From: Bdellovibrionales bacterium
GTDB taxonomy: Bacteria > Patescibacteriota > JACMRA01
Length of the DNA stretch: 64,000 bases
Reading direction: 5' to 3'
NCBI GenBank assembly: GCA_044378055.1
Contig: JBILXY010000002.1
Location: forward strand, 27,122-91,121
Of this stretch, positions 7,554 through 63,877 are shown piece after piece; the first letter of the stretch is position 1, and the number at the start of each line of letters is the position of its first letter. A model generated the notes under the pieces. It did not search any database. It saw only the letters and a list, made by a program, of their open reading frames with translations, and was not told the DNA's origin. The translations under genes and the position numbers were made by a program.

Positions 7554-7594
7554 ATTCTCCCTTGTAAAGGGAGGTGCCCAACGGGCGGAGGGTT
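7554..7594 (+). repeat. Two-hairpin GC-rich repeat, family B copy.
   Basis: Sequence ATTCTCCCTTGTAAAGGGAGGTGCCCAACGGGCGGAGGGTT. Hairpin 1 is CTCCCTT/AAGGGAG, hairpin 2 is GCCC-AAC-GGGC, and a G-rich tail follows. Confidence 0.7.
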
Positions 7595-7643
7595 AGAAGC
7601 GTAGGCAAAGGGAAGTTGGAGGGTTATTGGCAAAACTGACACC

Positions 7644-7689
7644 AATTCCCCCTTGAGAAGGGGGTGGCAACCGCAGGTTGACGGGGGTT
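7644..7689 (+). repeat. Two-hairpin GC-rich repeat, family B copy.
   Basis: Sequence AATTCCCCCTTGAGAAGGGGGTGGCAACCGCAGGTTGACGGGGGTT. Hairpin 1 is CCCCCTT/AAGGGGG, hairpin 2 is CAACC-GCA-GGTTG, and the tail is GACGGGGG. Confidence 0.75.
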
Positions 7690-7711
7690 AAAAAAACTCC
7701 CCTTGCGGGGA
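7689..7711 (-). terminator. Intrinsic terminator downstream of tRNA-Thr.
   Basis: The minus strand reads TCCCC-GCAA-GGGGA followed by GTTTTTTTAA, 12 nt after the tRNA 3' end. Confidence 0.7.
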
Positions 7712-7722
7712 ATTAAAATTTC

Positions 7723-7798
7723 TGGAGCCAACAATCGGATTCGAACCGATGACCTTTTCCTTACCATGGAAATGCTCTACCGACTGAGCTATGTTGGC
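7723..7798 (-). tRNA. tRNA-Thr (anticodon GGU), CCA encoded.
   Basis: Manual cloverleaf on the minus strand. Acceptor GCCAACA/TGTTGGC; D arm GCTC-AGTCGGTA-GAGC; anticodon arm TTTCC-ATGGTAA-GGAAA; T arm ATCGG-TTCGAAT-CCGAT; discriminator T followed by CCA. Confidence 0.9.
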
Positions 7799-10986: not shown

Positions 10987-11020
10987 AATTCCCCTTTTGA
11001 GGAGTGGATTCAAAGAGGTG
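10987..11020 (+). repeat. Degenerate or deleted family B repeat copy.
   Basis: AATTCCCCTTTTGAGGAGTGGATTCAAAGAGGTG starts directly after the stop codon. It aligns to the 63407 copy with an internal deletion. Confidence 0.45.
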
Positions 11021-11092
11021 CTAGTCATCTCTTTTTTCTTGTCCAAATTCTTTATTTTTGACTAAAACTGAACTGCTAAATAAATTTAAATT

Positions 11093-27110: not shown

Positions 27111-28193
27111 ATGAAAAAAGTACTTATCTTCCTTTTGATTATAATTATAGTTGCAATATCCATAATTGCCCTTTATAGATTTAAAAATAAAGAGGAAACC
27201 AACTCGCGAAACTTTTCCAACACTACTTTAAATAACTCAGGCACTTCTGGTACAAATAATGCAGTGCAAAACGATACTTACACCCAAAAACTAATTGACC
27301 AAGTTAAAACTGGTGGATCGACCACAGGAAAGGGTACTGCCTTGAAAATTGATGTTTCAGGAACAATCCGCGATTACATTTTATATCTACCACCAAATTT
27401 TAATAAACTGGAGAAGCTGCCGCTAGTGTTTGAACTTCACGGTGGAGAAGGAGATATGAATAAAATGCAAAATTATTCTAACTTTAACGACATCGCCTCT
27501 AAACATGGTTTTGCAGTAGTTTACCCAAATTCGCTAGATGGAAACTGGAACGACGGTCGTTTGAATCAAGCTGATATTAAGAACAAATTGGGCGACGATG
27601 TTGGTTTTATTTCCAGTCTAATTGATTCTTTGGTTCAAAATGCTAAAATAGACCCTGATAAAGTTTATGCAACTGGTATTTCTAATGGAGGTTTCATGAC
27701 CCAAAAATTAGCTTGCGATATTGGTAATAAACTGACAGCTATCGGCCCAATTGCAACCGCAGTACCAACCAACTATGTTACAGATTGTAAGCCTGCAAAA
27801 CCTATTCCTATAATTTGGTTTCAAGGTACAACCGACCCATTAATTCCTTTTAATGGTGGCGATTTAGTTACTAAAAGCTTATTTGGAAATTCGACTAGAA
27901 AAGGTACTGTTCTTTCTTCCCAAGATTCTTTAAAATTCTGGATGGATAATAATGGTGTCTCTGGAAGCCCAGTTATAACACAATTAACTGACCTAGATAA
28001 AAATGACTCTAGCGATATTACACACTTTTCATATTCCTCCAGTAGAAATGCTCCTATTGAATTTTACAAAGTAAACGGCGGAGGCCACAGCGTGCCTGGT
28101 TTAATTCAGTATTTACCCAAAATTATTATTGGAAATGTGAATGGTGATGTTAAAGCCGAAGAACTAATCTGGCAATTTTTCCAGCAGTATTAA
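27111..28193 (+). CDS. Secreted esterase of the PHB-depolymerase/LpqC family.
   Basis: N-terminal TM/signal segment, LPLVFELHGGEGD, VVYPNSLDGNWNDGR, and the nucleophile elbow GISNGG. Confidence 0.7.
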   Translation: MKKVLIFLLIIIIVAISIIALYRFKNKEETNSRNFSNTTLNNSGTSGTNNAVQNDTYTQKLIDQVKTGGSTTGKGTALKIDVSGTIRDYILYLPPNFNKLEKLPLVFELHGGEGDMNKMQNYSNFNDIASKHGFAVVYPNSLDGNWNDGRLNQADIKNKLGDDVGFISSLIDSLVQNAKIDPDKVYATGISNGGFMTQKLACDIGNKLTAIGPIATAVPTNYVTDCKPAKPIPIIWFQGTTDPLIPFNGGDLVTKSLFGNSTRKGTVLSSQDSLKFWMDNNGVSGSPVITQLTDLDKNDSSDITHFSYSSSRNAPIEFYKVNGGGHSVPGLIQYLPKIIIGNVNGDVKAEELIWQFFQQY

Positions 28194-54140: not shown

Positions 54141-55895
54141 ATGAATAATTTAGACTTTTCCGCCTTCCTAAATTCCGAAATTAAAACTGATTCGGGCTTT
54201 CAATTTGGTAAAATTCCTGCTTCCAAAACTGCCATCGATTTAGTTTTTATTCACGATCCCAAAACCAAAATAACAATTTATACAGCTGTTAGTGCTAGTC
54301 AGTATCCTTTTCAATCTGTGTTAGCTTTTGCCGGAGCTAGATATTCCCGGGCGGATGGTATTATTTCAATTCTTTCCCAAATTCAAGAAAGCAATACAAA
54401 TGCCGATAAAAAACTTGGAAACATTGTAAATAATTACGGTCATTCAAGTGTGGCTGAAATGGCCAATATTCCTATTTACATTGAAGGTTTAACCAAATTT
54501 CAAAGCGAACGATTGTTTCATTTAAGTGCCATTTATTCTGGCCAAGAAAGATCAAGCCGGTACCAGAAATTAGATGGAATGCAACCAGTTAGCTTAGGCA
54601 AATATTTTAGAGAAGGCGAAACTTTAAATAATGAAAATATGGATGATGAAGGCCTATTTAGCGATGCAGGTCTATTTAACCAAACTACAGAAGACAACTT
54701 TTTGTACACAGAGTTTGAAAATATTCAGAGATTAGCCAAAGCAAATTATTTAGAATTTTTCCAAAAAACCCAAGATTTTTATATTAACCACTTTAGTATC
54801 GATACAAACAGTAAAAAGGAAATGAACACTGTTATAAGCCGAAGCTTAGATACTGCCAGGTATTTTCTACCGCTTGGTGCCATGCATACCACTTCTATGG
54901 CCTTGTTTACCAACGCCCGGGAATGGTCTAGGCTGATAGGGCAATTACAAAGTAAAACAGATTTAGAGGCTATAAATATTGCAGCCATGCTTAAACATCT
55001 TCTTGCTCCAACCGAGGAAATAGCATTGCAGCTGAATTATACCCCTGAAGCTGCGGAATTAATTCGTTATACAAGTGCCGATGAAATTACTGGAGACAAT
55101 CTTCAAACTTTGCAAAATTATTTAGAAACCTTGGAAACTTTTCAGAAATTGGTTGATTCAAACTTTAATGAAATTAAATTTATCAATGCCGAGGCAACTT
55201 TATTCGGAGATAAATTAAGCTCTGGGGGGAAGCTGATTTTGCAGAATATTCTTTGTTTATACCCCACCCTAAATATTGCAAAATTATCTGTTTGGTTGCA
55301 AAGTTTAAGCAAGAACGAAGCAGAAAAGCTTGGTACTATTTGTTTCCAGAATTTTAATCATCACAGACAAATTGGTCAGCCACTTTCAACTAATCAAGTT
55401 AGTTTTGAACTTAAAACCGATTTTGGGGCCATGATGGATTTAAACCGGCACAGAGCTTGGGGCAGATTTAACCCAATTTTTAACTATCTAAACTTTTCAA
55501 CCGACTTGATTAAAAATGGTTTTGTTTTGCCTCTTTATCTAACGGAGATTCCAGAAATGAAAGCAATAAAAGATGAGTTTGAGAAAAGAATGCTTGAATA
55601 TTATAAACAAGTGGAAATATTCTGGAATGATGCTTCGCAAGTTGAAAATTTCCCAAAACAAGCTCTGATTGATTTATTACCCCTAGCCCACAACGCCAAT
55701 ATTTTAATGCACGCTTCAGCCAAGGAAATTGATTATATGACCAAACTTAGGGTAAGGCCAGGAGGACATATAAATTACCGTTTTTTGGTTTACCAAATGC
55801 AGCAAGAAGTAATCAAAGCCGACCCATTCTTCAGACCCCAGGAACTTACAAAACCAGATTCCAACTCCAAAGCAGAATTCATGGATAGAAGTTAG
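54141..55895 (+). CDS. Long ThyX-like (flavin-dependent thymidylate synthase family) protein, apparently a tandem duplication of the ThyX fold.
   Basis: The first half has SERLFHLSAIYSGQERSSRYQ, where S.RY is kept and RHR is degraded to FHL. The second half has MDLNRHRAWGRF, where RHR is kept and no S.RY follows. LRVRPGGHINYRF lies near the C-terminus. Confidence 0.5.
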   Translation: MNNLDFSAFLNSEIKTDSGFQFGKIPASKTAIDLVFIHDPKTKITIYTAVSASQYPFQSVLAFAGARYSRADGIISILSQIQESNTNADKKLGNIVNNYGHSSVAEMANIPIYIEGLTKFQSERLFHLSAIYSGQERSSRYQKLDGMQPVSLGKYFREGETLNNENMDDEGLFSDAGLFNQTTEDNFLYTEFENIQRLAKANYLEFFQKTQDFYINHFSIDTNSKKEMNTVISRSLDTARYFLPLGAMHTTSMALFTNAREWSRLIGQLQSKTDLEAINIAAMLKHLLAPTEEIALQLNYTPEAAELIRYTSADEITGDNLQTLQNYLETLETFQKLVDSNFNEIKFINAEATLFGDKLSSGGKLILQNILCLYPTLNIAKLSVWLQSLSKNEAEKLGTICFQNFNHHRQIGQPLSTNQVSFELKTDFGAMMDLNRHRAWGRFNPIFNYLNFSTDLIKNGFVLPLYLTEIPEMKAIKDEFEKRMLEYYKQVEIFWNDASQVENFPKQALIDLLPLAHNANILMHASAKEIDYMTKLRVRPGGHINYRFLVYQMQQEVIKADPFFRPQELTKPDSNSKAEFMDRS

Positions 55896-55963: not shown

Positions 55964-56049
55964 AATTCCCCTCTTGAGGCACTGGTACAGTTCGGGTTTC
56001 CCGAACGACATGAGTGTCCGAAGGGTGGCAGTCGCAGACTGACGGGGTG
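55964..56049 (+). repeat. Family B repeat copy interrupted by a ~44-nt nested GC-rich insertion.
   Basis: AATTCCCCTCTTGAGG[CACTGGTACAGTTCGGGTTTCCCGAACGACATGAGTGTCCGAAG]GGTGGCAGTCGCAGACTGACGGGGTG. Hairpin 2 is CAGTC-GCA-GACTG. The insert carries its own hairpin GTTCGGG-TTT-CCCGAAC. Confidence 0.7.
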
Positions 56050-56156
56050 TTTTTCATAATGATAAGCTATCACATTCACTCTAATAAGAAAATTAGCGAG
56101 CTTAACAACAACTCCCCCAATAAAAAATCACCCTCAGTTAAAAGGGTAATTCGCCG

Positions 56157-61119: not shown

Positions 61120-61231
61120 TGTTAGATTTTAATAATTTGCAAGATTATAATATTATATTTAGTATTTGTCATCTTCTAATAAATTATTCATAATATCCAC
61201 AATCAAATTAAGAGTGAAATATTTTTCTTAT

Positions 61232-62005
61232 ATGTCCGAAGTTAAATTAAGCAGAAAAAAAATAGAGGATATGAAAATCTTCCAGGTAGGAGTAGGGCTT
61301 ATCTTGCTGATAGAAAGCTTGGTAATTTGGCTATTAAGTTCCACTTTTACCCTACCTGTTACAACCACCTATTTTGAATCTAGCGGTGTTGGTAATTCCT
61401 TAGCACATGTTACCAGAGAAATATTCAGGGTTCAAACCGCCCATATATTGGTAATTTTTCTTTTAGTGCCATCAATTATGCACTTAATCATTGCCCTACC
61501 AGGTGTTTTTCCCAAATACAGACAATTGATTGAAAATAAATTTAATCCACTTCGTTGGTTAGAATATAGTATTACCGCCCCCTTGATGATTGTTTTACTG
61601 GCCATGTTAAGCGGAATATTCGATTTTTCAACCATAATTTTACTTTTCGCCGTTTCAGTAAGTATGTTGCTTTTTGGTGCAAACATGGAGGTAATCAACC
61701 GAAAACTTGAAAAAGTACAATGGTCTTCCTTTATTTTTGGATCTATCTTTGGAATTGTACCTTGGATAATTATTTGGATGCATATTTCAGGAGCAAGAGA
61801 TATTAGTTTAATTCCATATTATACCTTAATTGCCTTCTTCTCTTTACTAGCCTTCTTTGCTTTTTTTCCGCTTAACATGTTTCTTTACTACAAAAAAATT
61901 GGCCCATGGAAAGACTATGAATTTGTAGAAACCTGCTTTGTAATTCTAAGTTTATGCAGTAAATCAGCCTTAGCCTGGCAAGTATTTATTGGTTTAATGG
62001 GGTAG
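61232..62005 (+). CDS. Heliorhodopsin (7-TM retinal protein).
   Basis: FNPLRWLEYSITAPLMIVLLAMLSGIFDFSTIILLFAVSVSMLLFG and VILSLCSKSALAWQVFIG match heliorhodopsin 48C12 (NIFRWVEYSLSSSVMIVLIAQICG..., IVLSLVAKSALAWQIFSG). Both the Schiff-base Lys and the counterion Glu are present. I placed the start at ATG 61232 (MSEVKL). Confidence 0.85.
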   Translation: MSEVKLSRKKIEDMKIFQVGVGLILLIESLVIWLLSSTFTLPVTTTYFESSGVGNSLAHVTREIFRVQTAHILVIFLLVPSIMHLIIALPGVFPKYRQLIENKFNPLRWLEYSITAPLMIVLLAMLSGIFDFSTIILLFAVSVSMLLFGANMEVINRKLEKVQWSSFIFGSIFGIVPWIIIWMHISGARDISLIPYYTLIAFFSLLAFFAFFPLNMFLYYKKIGPWKDYEFVETCFVILSLCSKSALAWQVFIGLMG

Positions 62006-62566: not shown

Positions 62567-63121
62567 TTAACCGTGGTGGATTATTTGGTTTAGGGCAAGA
62601 GCTGATAATTTCCTTACGGTATTTATATTTCTAGCAGTAATTTGAGTATACAATTTAGAGCCAATAAACTTTGGCACCATGCCTTGGTCATAGTTTACCC
62701 TTAGTATATTCCAAACCAAAGCCCCCGGCACATAAATTAAATTTTCTTTTTCAGGATCATGCTTTAATTCTTTCAAAACCTCAGGCGAATCAATTTCTGG
62801 TGGTAAAAACATAACATCCGTCTTCATTTCTTCATTATTCAGCCATTCTAAATTGATGGAACTACATATTTCTTCAAGCTTTGAAGTTGATAGCACCAAC
62901 ACTTTAACCTGAATACCAAACACTTCTTTAATTTTGTCTTGAATTATCTCAACTAACTTGTTGGTCGAGGGATTATCACTTTCAAACAAAACATTACCTG
63001 AATTTATATATGTTTTAACAGCATTGAAGCCTAATAGGCCAAAAATTTCAGCCAAAGTCTTCATATCTACTTTATTATTTCCTCCTACATTTATCCCCCT
63101 AATCAGTGCTATATAATACAT
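62567..63121 (-). CDS. DUF1697-family protein.
   Basis: MYYIALIRGINVGGNNKVDMKTLAEIF...TYINSGNVLF is the characteristic DUF1697 N-terminus. Confidence 0.7.
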   Translation of the reverse strand: MYYIALIRGINVGGNNKVDMKTLAEIFGLLGFNAVKTYINSGNVLFESDNPSTNKLVEIIQDKIKEVFGIQVKVLVLSTSKLEEICSSINLEWLNNEEMKTDVMFLPPEIDSPEVLKELKHDPEKENLIYVPGALVWNILRVNYDQGMVPKFIGSKLYTQITARNINTVRKLSALALNQIIHHG

Positions 63122-63216
63122 AAATAATAATATTTACTACGAATTTTTGTTTTTCTTCAACTTACAAGTACCTTTTGCTTAACTTTAGGAGTATTTAAAA
63201 TTTATTAGTTAATCTC

Positions 63217-63258
63217 AATCCACCTCTTGAGGGGTGGCAGGCAAAGCCTGACGGGGTG
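63217..63258 (+). repeat. Two-hairpin GC-rich repeat, family B copy.
   Basis: AATCCACCTCTTGAGGGGTGGCAGGCAAAGCCTGACGGGGTG. Hairpin 2 is CAGGC-AAA-GCCTG. Confidence 0.75.
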
Positions 63259-63314
63259 GGCTTAACTCATAGAATTTTCAGAATTTGAATCGGTGGATTT
63301 AACCCGTGAATTAT

Positions 63315-63356
63315 CCACCTCCCCCACTTCGTGGGTACTCCTCAAAGAGGAGAATT
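63315..63356 (-). repeat. Two-hairpin GC-rich repeat, family B copy in reverse orientation.
   Basis: The minus strand reads AATTCTCCTCTTTGAGGAGTACCCACGAAGTGGGGGAGGTGG. Hairpin 2 is CCCAC-GAA-GTGGG. Confidence 0.7.
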
Positions 63357-63406
63357 TCAATGAACTGTAATTTTAGGAAACATTTTAAAATCAAACTTTA
63401 CTGAGC

Positions 63407-63450
63407 TTCCCCTCTTGAGGGGTGGCAAATTCAAAGAATTTGACGGGGTG
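63407..63450 (+). repeat. Two-hairpin GC-rich repeat, family B copy.
   Basis: TTCCCCTCTTGAGGGGTGGCAAATTCAAAGAATTTGACGGGGTG. Hairpin 2 is AAATTC-AAA-GAATTT. It lies 11 nt beyond the stop of the 63461 gene. Confidence 0.75.
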
Positions 63451-63460
63451 GACTTTTTCC

Positions 63461-63877
63461 CTACCGCACCAACCCAGGCCTCTTTTCCGCTTCCAACAAA
63501 ACCTTCTTCAACACATCTAAATTTACATCTTCCAGTTTTTTAATATTAATACAACTTTTCCCAACCTTCACCTTACCAAGTTCTTTAGCATGCATTTCAG
63601 CAATATATTCACCGTTATTTAAAGCACAAACATATAGGCTAATATAGTTTTTCTGACTGGCAAGCGAAATTATAGGCCACGAAAGGGTTTCTTTTTTAGA
63701 ATTAAGATAAGTAAAAGAACCAAAACCTATCATATTGCTAGCAAAATACGGCTTGAAGGCAGGCAAAGTTTGGGTTATGAAATTATATAGAAAATTAAAC
63801 ATTTCCTTGCGCCCTGCGGGTACGGATGCTATATAGTCTGGGATGTTTGTGGCTTTGGTGGGTTTGAACATGTTCAT
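63461..63877 (-). CDS. DUF1801 (YdhG-like) domain protein.
   Basis: IPDYIASVPAGRKEMFNFLYNFITQTLPAFKPYFASNMIGFGSF resembles the DUF1801 N-terminal pattern. Confidence 0.55.
   Translation of the reverse strand: MNMFKPTKATNIPDYIASVPAGRKEMFNFLYNFITQTLPAFKPYFASNMIGFGSFTYLNSKKETLSWPIISLASQKNYISLYVCALNNGEYIAEMHAKELGKVKVGKSCINIKKLEDVNLDVLKKVLLEAEKRPGLVR

Follow-up and report, generated by a model that had tools for sequence, protein, structure and literature searches.

The 64,000-nt stretch of DNA analysed here (the window) covers positions 27,122 to 91,121 of the forward strand of contig JBILXY010000002.1 (GenBank assembly GCA_044378055.1, deposited as Bdellovibrionales bacterium and placed by GTDB in the Patescibacteriota, JACMRA01). 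It carries seven copies of a GC-rich module of ~44 nt, which is built of AATT, a pyrimidine arm, a short loop and a purine arm (together hairpin 1), TGG, a second hairpin (hairpin 2), optionally AC, and a G-rich tail. A first-pass annotation, made from the letters of the window, had described these copies and had left them without a named family; the module can now be placed as a variant of the BoxC/PIT/TMECO repeats that forms the ends of cassettes with a DUF559 gene. The copies in the window appear to comprise solo ends of such cassettes, one left/right pair, a member of an 88-nt sub-family and a deletion stump.

All seven copies (c1 to c7) are present with the coordinates and layout given by the first-pass annotation, and the six hairpin-2 stems with their 3-nt loops agree exactly with its list. 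Module c1 (7554..7594, plus strand), of the right-end type, consists of ATT (7554-7556), hairpin 1 CTCCCTT/AAGGGAG (7557-7573), hairpin 2 GCCC-AAC-GGGC (7576-7586) and the tail GGAGGGTT (7587-7594), with a predicted DNA fold of -9.3 kcal/mol (z -2.95); its tail GAGGGTT mirrors the arm AAGGGAG. The tail sequence GGAGGGTT recurs as an orphan at 7618-7625, 24 nt past this module. Module c2 (7644..7689, plus strand), of the left-end type, has AATT (7644-7647), hairpin 1 CCCCCTT-GAG-AAGGGGG (7648-7664), TGG, hairpin 2 CAACC-GCA-GGTTG (7668-7680), AC and the tail GGGGGTT (7683-7689; z -2.73), which mirrors the arm AAGGGGG. Module c3 (10987..11022, plus strand) retains the 5′ arm and loop of hairpin 1; it had been called degenerate and is the stump of a full module, the remainder of which was removed by a deletion of ~420 nt relative to a related strain.

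Module c4 (55964..56051, plus strand) represents the 88-nt sub-family. It begins with AATT (55964-55967) and the 5′ arm of hairpin 1 (55968-55973), carries an extra hairpin-bearing segment of ~43 nt (~55980-56022) within the 3′ arm, and continues with TGG, hairpin 2 CAGTC-GCA-GACTG (56029-56041), AC and the tail GGGGTG (56044-56049). The copy itself is as first described; what had looked like an insertion into its hairpin 1 is a heritable feature of the sub-family and recurs at a second locus in a related strain. The extra segment, which is also found at L220:4345-4390 (loci outside the window carry L numbers), has a hairpin of its own, GTTCGGG-TTT-CCCGAAC. The remaining three copies form a cluster. 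Module c5 (63217..63260, plus strand; left-end type) has hairpin 1 (C)CACCTC-TT-GAGGGG (63220-63234), TGG, hairpin 2 CAGGC-AAA-GCCTG (63238-63250), AC and the tail GGGGTGG (63253-63259). Module c6 (63314..63356, minus strand; right-end type) reads AATT (63356-63353), hairpin 1 CTCCTC-TTT-GAGGAG (63352-63338), TA, hairpin 2 CCCAC-GAA-GTGGG (63335-63323) and the tail GGAGGTGGA (63322-63314; z -2.88), in which GAGGTG mirrors the arm GAGGAG. Together, c5 and c6 form a left/right pair (63217..63356, no strand assigned) whose tails face each other around a 53-nt core, an open reading frame (ORF)-less arrangement that has the layout of a DUF559 cassette minus its gene, similar to that of miniature inverted-repeat transposable elements (MITEs). 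Module c7 (63405..63452, plus strand; left-end type) has hairpin 1 CCCCTC-TT-GAGGGG (63409-63422), TGG, hairpin 2 CAAATTC-AAA-GAATTTG (63426-63442), AC and the tail GGGGTGGA (63445-63452; z -2.65).

A covariance model (R1), built from 35 seed sequences of which 34 are copies from other genomes and one is the window copy 63217-63260, recovered six of the seven copies in an unfiltered search of the window (E 8.5e-18 to 1e-2), all other matches being at noise level. The scores are 60.2 bits for 63217-63260 (plus; E 8.5e-18), a value that is partly circular because c5 is among the seeds, 51.7 bits for 63405-63452 (plus), 36.4 bits for 7644-7688 (plus; E 1e-9), 29.5 bits for 55996-56051 (plus; unfiltered, or 39.6 bits for 55964-56051 with default filters), 22.4 bits for 63314-63356 (minus) and 15.7 bits for 10987-11022 (plus; E 0.01). 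The copy at 7554-7594 is too divergent and was missed, its architecture being the same. In DNA folding, four of five full copies adopt two hairpins and a free tail (z -2.65 to -2.95); 63217-63260, with its variant 5′ arm, folds otherwise (z -1.87), and the degenerate 10987 copy is unfolded (z 0.02). The cluster is not an assembly artefact, since 63122-63460 is base-for-base identical in five independent assemblies. A search of Rfam yields two tRNAs in the window at the gathering threshold, and 63150-63500 gives only noise at permissive thresholds (E 0.2-9); weak matches to whalefall-1 and to miRNA families were rejected as such.

Hairpin 1 and the tail had been reported as conserved in sequence, and hairpin 1 is invariant (four C-G pairs plus a U-A pair) in 128 distinct modules from loci that were picked by their neighbouring protein. 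For the tail, conservation is only part of the description, as it also co-varies with hairpin 1 as a mirror repeat. The tail is the purine arm of hairpin 1 reversed, with G opposite G and either T or A opposite A, as seen in the arm and tail combinations GAGGGG and GGGGTG, GGAGGGG and GGGGTGG, GAAGGGG and GGGGTAG, AGAGGGG and GGGGTGT, GAGGAG and GAGGTG, AAGGGAG and GAGGGTT (window c1), and AAGGGGG and GGGGGTT (window c2). Of 252 modules, 242 parse into a perfect pyrimidine/purine hairpin and, after it, a G-rich block. Among 183 unique modules the mirror rule matches 98.1% of the purine-arm positions and is complete in 89.6%, compared with 62% for permuted tails (maximum 68%; 0/1000 reach the observed value). 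When the comparison is limited to the 61 modules whose arms tell the models apart, which fall into 17 arm classes, 388 of 402 positions agree with the mirror and the agreement is complete in 49/61, whereas a tail read as a direct repeat of the 3′ arm plus linker is complete in 11/61 and a tail read as an alternative Watson-Crick partner of the 5′ arm of hairpin 1, as in an attenuator-like switch, in 1/61; both were rejected. A G-quadruplex seems unlikely: it would require hairpin 1 to melt and leaves the A-to-T correspondences unexplained. The mirrored tail is most likely the signature of an intrastrand purine-motif DNA triplex, the formation of which we infer for this module; the TMECO/BoxC motif forms a triplex in vitro (PMC4666352).

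Hairpin 2 keeps its structure and is free in sequence. In the 128 modules, five of five pairs show double changes and 95.5% of the cells are paired, which bears out the covariation proposed from the window copies; the covariation score is 0.249 versus 0.058 in shuffles (0/500 reach 0.249), and in slid registers the pairing falls to 53-63%. An independent test took 77 distinct inner segments with only the flanks as anchors, and 77% of these have a perfect stem of at least 4 bp, compared with 4.9% in shuffles (maximum 13%); they carry 45 different 5′ arms. The stems are mostly 4-6 bp and begin with C-G followed by A-T, and the loops are mostly of 3-4 nt, with GAA, GTA, GCA and GGA closed by C-G predominating. 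This C-GNA-G arrangement is the classic, very stable DNA minihairpin loop. Identical hairpin-2 variants recur across phyla, and because c7 is ~95.6% identical to modules of two other phyla, the variants are inherited and exchanged as blocks and not only remade by point mutation. The first-pass reading of compensatory variation thus stands as far as pairing under a structural constraint is concerned; stepwise drift alone does not account for the data, since hairpin 2 is swapped as a whole block between near-identical strains. As a connector in the predicted triplex, hairpin 2 would matter only by its shape.

Selection on the structure of either RNA or single-stranded DNA had been suggested. The structural part of this claim holds, and DNA is much likelier than RNA given the orientation of the modules, their inverted pairs, the reading frames that they adopt and the triplex rule. 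Relative to flanking genes, 17 intergenic modules are co-directional and 23 antisense, 6 lie between convergent and 8 between divergent genes, which gives no bias. The lack of an orientation preference, the usage as inverted pairs, the mirror rule and the loop types favour a DNA-level element, and the module most likely folds as single-stranded DNA; purine-motif triplexes do not form in RNA, as stated by Holder et al. (PMC4666352).

The module is a genuine repeat family with members far outside the window. One genome per species was scanned for a pattern in which parts of hairpin 1 and of the tail were fixed, which gave at least 119 stretches, eleven of them high-GC loci that the covariance model rejected as chance matches. 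The remaining loci belong to Patescibacteria (Nomura-, Pacei-, Parcu- and 'Saccharibacteria' metagenome-assembled genomes, MAGs), a Thermotogaceae MAG, a Bacillota MAG, Kapabacteria/Ignavibacteria, Chlamydiota (Simkania), Nitrospirota, Verrucomicrobiota (Limisphaerales), Cloacimonadota, Planctomycetota (Brocadia), Fibrobacteria and Bacteroidota (a cultured Pedobacter), and near-identical modules occur in more than ten phyla. The covariance model matches 181 times in 737 kb of these loci, and there is hardly any variation in bases outside the search pattern (ATTCCCCT upstream and TGGA downstream). The flank motif ACTGAGCT is common to the window copies and to copies in Paceibacteria and Parcubacteria MAGs. 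Module c5 is 97% identical to modules flanking DUF559 genes in L076, L125 and L127, c6 is 93% identical to a module of L130, and c7 matches DUF559-flanking modules of Cloacimonadota L072 and Patescibacteria L097 (~95.6%, hairpin 2 included). Of the genome copies, 106/115 lie outside long ORFs, and doublets spaced by 5-10 nt in Nomurabacteria and Paceibacteria loci have the geometry of the window pair 63217-63356. In the Thermotogaceae MAG (e.g. L003, L007, L008 and L030) the module sits within a longer inverted repeat, ACAAGCATTTGTAA...module...TTTTTGTAAATGCTTAT, a lineage-specific palindromic unit. Carriage by phages was rejected, with one match in 2.9 million viral contigs, and a literature search by module sequence strings returned primers and the V5 tag only.

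An all-against-all clustering of 935 ORFs from the 119 scan loci (~0.9 Mb; among the matches listed) identified DUF559 as the sole recurrent family that overlaps the modules (Pfam E 1e-20 to 1e-24), the other recurrent clusters being ABC ATPases, histidine kinases and the like. DUF559 is a Vsr-like PD-(D/E)XK nuclease, found here in Cloacimonadota, Fibrobacteria, Brocadia and several Patescibacteria with 52-79% identity across phyla. Its residues D68, E79, D81 and H85, the D, E-x-D and H of this Vsr-fold nuclease, are invariant, and its relative in the PDB is 3HRL (E 4e-16). For a reciprocal test, 80 metagenome loci were chosen by DUF559 protein similarity alone from 540 relatives found. Modules are present in 78/80 of these loci (247 modules in 261 kb), and a module lies at most 150 nt upstream of the DUF559 gene in 72/77 testable loci. 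The canonical arrangement, seen in 47/80, is a left module, the gene and an oppositely oriented right module, with tails inward and at most 150 nt on each side. Left modules tend to TGG-CAGNC-GNA-GNCTG-AC and right modules to TG-CCC-loop-GGG-C, and the two ends of one cassette have rare hairpin-1 variants in common. This association identifies the modules as inverted terminal repeats of a DUF559 cassette of ~0.5 kb, which distant phyla have in common. In some cassettes (L199 and L146), the DUF559 start codon, ATG or TTG, follows at a distance of 4-6 nt from the left tail GGGGTGGT, which could double as ribosome-binding site. Modules designated type A provide, in one frame, the DUF559 stop codon from their hairpin-1 loop (…KFPS*).

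The association extends to model organisms. The DUF559 gene of E. coli K-12 is ycjD, which has sapF and fabI (envM) as neighbours; a degenerate motif overlaps with its 3′ end, and a complete copy of BoxC/TMECO is found ~150 nt downstream. We take this fabI (envM)/ycjD locus to be the one at which BoxC was first described. The fabI-ycjD-sapF interval is dimorphic in E. coli: the K-12 form (L209, 1351.0-1351.8 kb) is present in 3346/5426 complete genomes, and in the others the sequence departs from it ~40 nt ahead of BoxC and a TetR/RND island takes its place, which is a different island and not an empty site. The DUF559 genes of Enterobacter asburiae, Klebsiella quasipneumoniae and Franconibacter occupy three different chromosomal sites, and a Y-R-R′ motif overlaps the 3′ end of each. 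In Neisseria sicca and Uruburuella, motif arrays are located downstream of DUF559 genes. Overall, the enterobacterial and Neisseriaceae DUF559 loci contain 28 Y-R-R′ motifs compared with 0.2 in shuffles. Our literature search found no paper tying DUF559 or ycjD to BoxC or triplex repeats. In a survey of predicted inversion targets, 'DUF559 domain-containing protein' was 14-fold enriched (PMC9881135), which fits genes flanked by inverted repeats.

Cassettes are also found inside genes. Taking a cassette as embedded where an open frame extends at least 90 codons beyond it in both directions, 23/80 lie in frame within larger genes, and the hosts are restriction-modification genes in 23/23 cases. 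By Pfam, with several matches per host possible, these include 8 HsdR, 4 HsdS, 5 N6_N4 methylase, 4 Eco57I-type, 3 type ISP, 3 N6_Mtase and 2 MmeI-type matches, and a type III mod gene of a Cloacimonadota MAG is a further in-gene case. In the five HsdR loci inspected, the cassette occupies the same loop, just before helicase motif I. The host frame runs through the embedded modules, and because the frame in which they are read changes from host to host (NSPPLEGW... versus IPLLRGG...), the modules are DNA features and not protein motifs. No conserved intein residues were seen at the embedded cassettes, and the Rfam scan of the window gave no intron family. A GIY-YIG nuclease domain of 282 nt (L173:2411-2692) is inserted in frame into that loop of HsdR as well, immediately behind the DUF559 cassette, and is absent from L181 and L166; a second nuclease family is using the same in-frame HsdR niche. 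Another hsdR gene contains eight tandem right-type modules of 42 nt, or 14 codons each, in frame (L147:2338-2673), and in L148, which has a duplicated module, the downstream part of hsdR is readable only in another frame.

Comparison of closely related sequences indicates that modules are gained and lost as units. L113 differs from L120 by one extra module, L166 has an extra tandem module relative to L181, and L183 has, compared with L166, L196 and L173, two tandem modules that keep the frame at a second site in hsdR; these are bounded exactly by AATT...GGGGTGG, and the target site is not duplicated. The pair L113 and L120 had hinted at AATT as a target-site duplication, which was rejected since the second hsdR insertion shows that AATT belongs to the module. 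The presence/absence comparison proposed in the first-pass annotation was carried out for the window and revealed polymorphism at every site except c2 among the related strains compared. The 7554-7634 segment with c1 is replaced by 31 other bases in the related strain L220, in which c2 is identical and the c3 site contains a complete 88-nt module plus ~420 nt. The 88-nt form is therefore a propagating sub-family and not a one-off insertion, because related strains have it at two distinct loci. At the c4 locus, the related strain L211 has hairpin 2 CTCC-GTA-GGAG in place of CAGTC-GCA-GACTG, with near-identical flanks and the same insert in hairpin 1. Similarly, L215 and L218 have CAACC-GAA-GGTTG in place of the c7 hairpin 2 CAAATTC-AAA-GAATTTG, with the tail and hairpin 1 the same and the DNA beyond rearranged, and the c5 and c6 unit is absent from L215. 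Same-strain assemblies show no polymorphism at the 63.2-63.45 kb cluster; differences appear only in the more distant strain.

Other variable features were noted in and around the window. Downstream of c4, a hairpin ACCCT...AGGGT (window ~56128-56150) has four loop differences from the related strain, with only two or three in the surrounding ~250 nt; hairpin loops look like local mutation hot spots. The DUF1697 gene by the cluster (window 62567-63121) is replaced in a related strain (L215/L218) by two small minus-strand genes (100 and 92 aa), and there an Mrr-like restriction gene is located upstream of DUF1801, forming a variable island bounded by a module. An unrelated 754-bp element (L044:494-1247, compared with L071) distinguishes two MAGs whose flanking sequences are 99% identical. 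Its terminal inverted repeats (GGGTCTCCCACAGAATATG...) are perfect, and it is bordered on both sides by TAAGTTT, consistent with a target duplication; it resembles a classical transposon insertion polymorphism. The window itself is low-GC DNA with divergent housekeeping genes. At 7690-7722 on its minus strand, CTCCCC-TTGC-GGGGAG followed by T7 resembles the intrinsic terminator of tRNA-Thr (7723-7798, minus strand) and is not a module. The thyX ORF (54141-55895) encodes 584 aa, of which the ThyX model matches residues 63-286 only, and a heliorhodopsin gene (61166-62005) is located two genes from the module cluster.

Judged by its sequence, the module is a variant of the intrastrand-triplex repeats that have been described as BoxC (Bergler 1992), PIT elements (Hoyne & Maher 2000) and TMECO (Holder et al. 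2015, PMC4666352), the shared form of which is CCCTCNCCC-N3-6-GGGNGAGGG-N3-GGGNGAGGG with 9-nt stems (PMC4666352). TMECO is present in 3610 copies in 262 proteobacterial genomes, is intergenic and without strand bias, and is associated with rearrangements and not with mobility genes (PMC4666352). The module likewise has, on one strand, a C-rich arm, a pairing G-rich arm and a second G-rich block that mirrors the first, it is GC-rich, highly conserved, multi-copy and intergenic without strand bias at sites tied to rearrangements, and DUF559 genes have such motifs as neighbours in E. coli, in other Enterobacteriaceae and in Neisseriaceae. However, its stems are 6-7 nt long (CCCCTC(C)/(G)GAGGGG with the tail GGGGTG(G)) and not 9 nt (CCCTCNCCC), and in place of the 3-nt second loop of TMECO it has a connector of TGG, hairpin 2 and AC that spans 17-25 nt. 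This connector puts it outside the published searches, in which the second loop was limited to 1-6 nt (ITxF) or 0-10 nt (Hoyne et al.); the second loops of the Neisseriaceae and Enterobacteriaceae relatives are short, at 1-3 nt. Also, the hosts here are mostly non-proteobacterial and AT-rich and the modules terminate a gene cassette in inverted orientation, whereas published work on BoxC/PIT/TMECO reports no associated mobility or nuclease gene.

A second relationship concerns the CGTC-REP super-family, which includes Neisseria dRS3 and Rickettsia RPE-4/6 and has 'no dedicated transposase' (Di Nocera et al. 2013, PMC3733652). Hairpin 2 within TGG...GACG is the reverse complement of CGTC-stem-loop-stem-CCA, and type A copies read on the reverse strand as ...CCC-CGTC-[hairpin 2]-G-CCA-CCCC..., with both the CGTC tag and the CCA tail. 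Inverted dimers, clusters and intragenic in-frame insertions are found in both groups, the host phyla of both include Thermotogae, Chlorobi and Bacteroidetes, and hairpin 1 begins with ATTCCC as does dRS3. In contrast to the single 8-9-bp stem of CGTC REPs, which starts with AT pairs and has 4-5-nt loops, hairpin 2 has 4-7 bp and a 3-4-nt loop, and the tagged hairpin belongs to a larger module of hairpin and triplex. There is also a similarity to REPIN-RAYT systems and MITEs in that short structured repeats occur as singlets and inverted doublets and ORF-less derivatives far outnumber the protein-coding relative; like MITEs, the ORF-less left/right pairs (window 63217-63356 and the doublets) have the same ends and geometry as the DUF559 cassettes. 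Unlike in these systems, the flanked gene encodes only a PD-(D/E)XK (Vsr-like) nuclease domain and not an HUH or DDE transposase, and there is neither a GTAG tag nor a target-site duplication. REPIN-RAYT systems are described, in the RAREFAN preprint, as mostly vertically inherited, whereas the module family is near-unchanged between phyla.

The cassettes share with EDxHD/Vsr-like homing endonucleases (I-Bth0305I, PMC3239194) a small nuclease of the Vsr fold and the use of the same site in homologous conserved genes, and with the in-frame 'ShiLan' HNH insertions in phage methylase genes (PMC11855218) a host frame that stays open without intron or intein. They differ from homing endonuclease elements in lacking an intron or intein, in having the nuclease in frame with the host and in having structured inverted end modules, which also proliferate alone in intergenic DNA. 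The mobile GC clusters of yeast mitochondria and the Rickettsia palindromic elements (RPEs) are likewise GC-rich hairpin islands in AT-rich genomes that occur singly or in tandem and sometimes in frame in genes; organisms and sequences differ from those studied here. We know of no mirror or triplex rule and no DUF559 gene described for either. RPE-4/6 have been placed in the CGTC family (PMC3733652).

On balance, we lean towards the explanation that triplex-folding DNA modules are the ends of DUF559 cassettes, that the window copies are ORF-less derivatives and that the modules spread by the action of DUF559. When a module becomes single-stranded, hairpin 1 would form, hairpin 2 would act as a compact connector whose sequence is free, and the tail would fold antiparallel onto the purine arm to give a purine-motif triple helix with G.G:C and T.A:T or A.A:T triads. 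The DUF559 nuclease may recognise or cleave the folded or extruded module, and the break could then be repaired or recombined using other copies. The predicted outcomes would be that the gene spreads between module pairs, hairpin 2 is swapped as a block, modules are added or deleted at exact boundaries without target duplications, and module sites become rearrangement hot spots.

Several observations weigh against this explanation. The 64-kb window contains no DUF559 gene, none lies near any window copy, and the 53-nt core of the window pair has no detectable similarity to DUF559 cassettes; the spacers of the window cluster were considered as remnants of DUF559 genes and rejected for lack of similarity. 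In Enterobacteriaceae, the motifs are on one side of the DUF559 gene only. The lone solved DUF559 structure is an uncharacterised structural-genomics entry, no target-site duplication or transposase-like chemistry is evident, and the route to new sites is left unexplained. The association could also run in the reverse direction, with DUF559 genes homing into pre-existing modules. Finally, the in vitro proof of a triplex is for TMECO, and the triplex of the long-connector variant, which is beyond the scope of ViennaRNA, is a prediction from its letters.

Among the alternatives, the one that survives best is that the modules are structural or recombination hot-spot elements maintained by the host, with DUF559 as a dedicated repair or processing nuclease for triplex or hairpin structures, encoded beside its substrate, and with spread between genomes riding on restriction-modification islands. 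TMECO sites are linked with rearrangements and not with mobility genes (PMC4666352), the window sites are points of rearrangement or replacement between strains, and the enterobacterial motifs flank one side of a single-copy gene, all of which would suit such a role. We nevertheless consider it unlikely, as modules ~95-97% identical including hairpin 2 in different phyla, together with DUF559 proteins of 52-79% identity, point to horizontal spread as a unit, module gain occurs at exact boundaries within coding regions, the tandem arrays and the left/right pairs without an ORF have the look of selfish amplification, and the in-frame invasion of restriction-modification genes in 23/23 cases is hard to square with a host function.

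It is distinctly improbable that the complementarity of hairpin 2 is an unselected mutational by-product, arising by template switching in quasi-palindromes or by gene conversion. The replacement of hairpin 2 as an 11-17-nt block with unchanged flanks between near-identical strains is unlike stepwise compensation and speaks for such a process, but it would leave unexplained the perfect short hairpins of similar size, with C-GNA-G or comparably compact loops, across at least 45 distinct stems and more than ten phyla, and degenerate copies without pairing are rare and look like decaying relics. Still less probable is a REP/REPIN-like reading of the modules, in which an HUH tyrosine transposase of the RAYT or IS200/IS605 type would mobilise them as single-stranded hairpins and DUF559 would be only a frequent passenger. 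The short GC-rich intergenic hairpins, their occurrence as solos, inverted doublets and clusters without target-site duplications, and the TGG-stem-loop-stem-GACG arrangement complementary to the CGTC...CCA tag (PMC3733652) are all REP-like; against this, no Y1-transposase-like family (RAYT, IS200 or other) recurs beside the modules in the 119 loci listed (~0.9 Mb), CGTC REPs are themselves without an associated transposase (Di Nocera et al., PMC3733652), the flanked gene is DUF559, whose loci have modules in 78/80 cases, and the GTAG tag is absent. An RNA element selected in the transcript, be it a small RNA, a 3′-UTR stabiliser or terminator or a Shine-Dalgarno mimic, is the least probable of all, because the compensatory variation of hairpin 2, the several copies directly past stop codons and the Shine-Dalgarno-like tails, which in L199 and L146 precede the DUF559 start codon, are outweighed by the absence of Rfam matches even at permissive thresholds, the unbiased orientation (17 versus 23), the action of modules as inverted pairs, the lack of a consistent T-run and a tail that follows the mirror and not the Watson-Crick rule, purine-motif triplexes being stated to be absent in RNA (PMC4666352).

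For the triplex repeats (BoxC, PIT, TMECO) and the CGTC-type REPs, which have been on record for decades, two systematic studies have reported no partner enzyme and no agreed function (PMC4666352, PMC3733652). DUF559, a very large protein family without known role, is the first candidate partner enzyme for the long-orphan BoxC/triplex repeats; the searches from repeat to protein and from protein to repeat are independent of each other, and the link holds in more than ten phyla. Since ycjD lies beside BoxC in E. coli K-12, the question of the partner enzyme is directly testable in a model organism. The combination of a hairpin, a third strand and a connector hairpin would be a natural DNA fold that is backed by covariation of a rarely tested kind. 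For genome annotation, the modules create spurious ORFs and odd peptide insertions, so pipelines should mask them. In the cassettes, a nuclease gene invades restriction-modification genes and yet keeps their frame. More tentatively than the explanation given above for the modules, DUF559 cassettes may represent an unrecognised class of prokaryotic mobile element that moves by structure-specific cleavage and recombination instead of a transposase and prefers restriction-modification genes, which it enters in frame; the orphan BoxC/PIT/TMECO repeats, and possibly the CGTC REPs, would then be its ORF-less modules.

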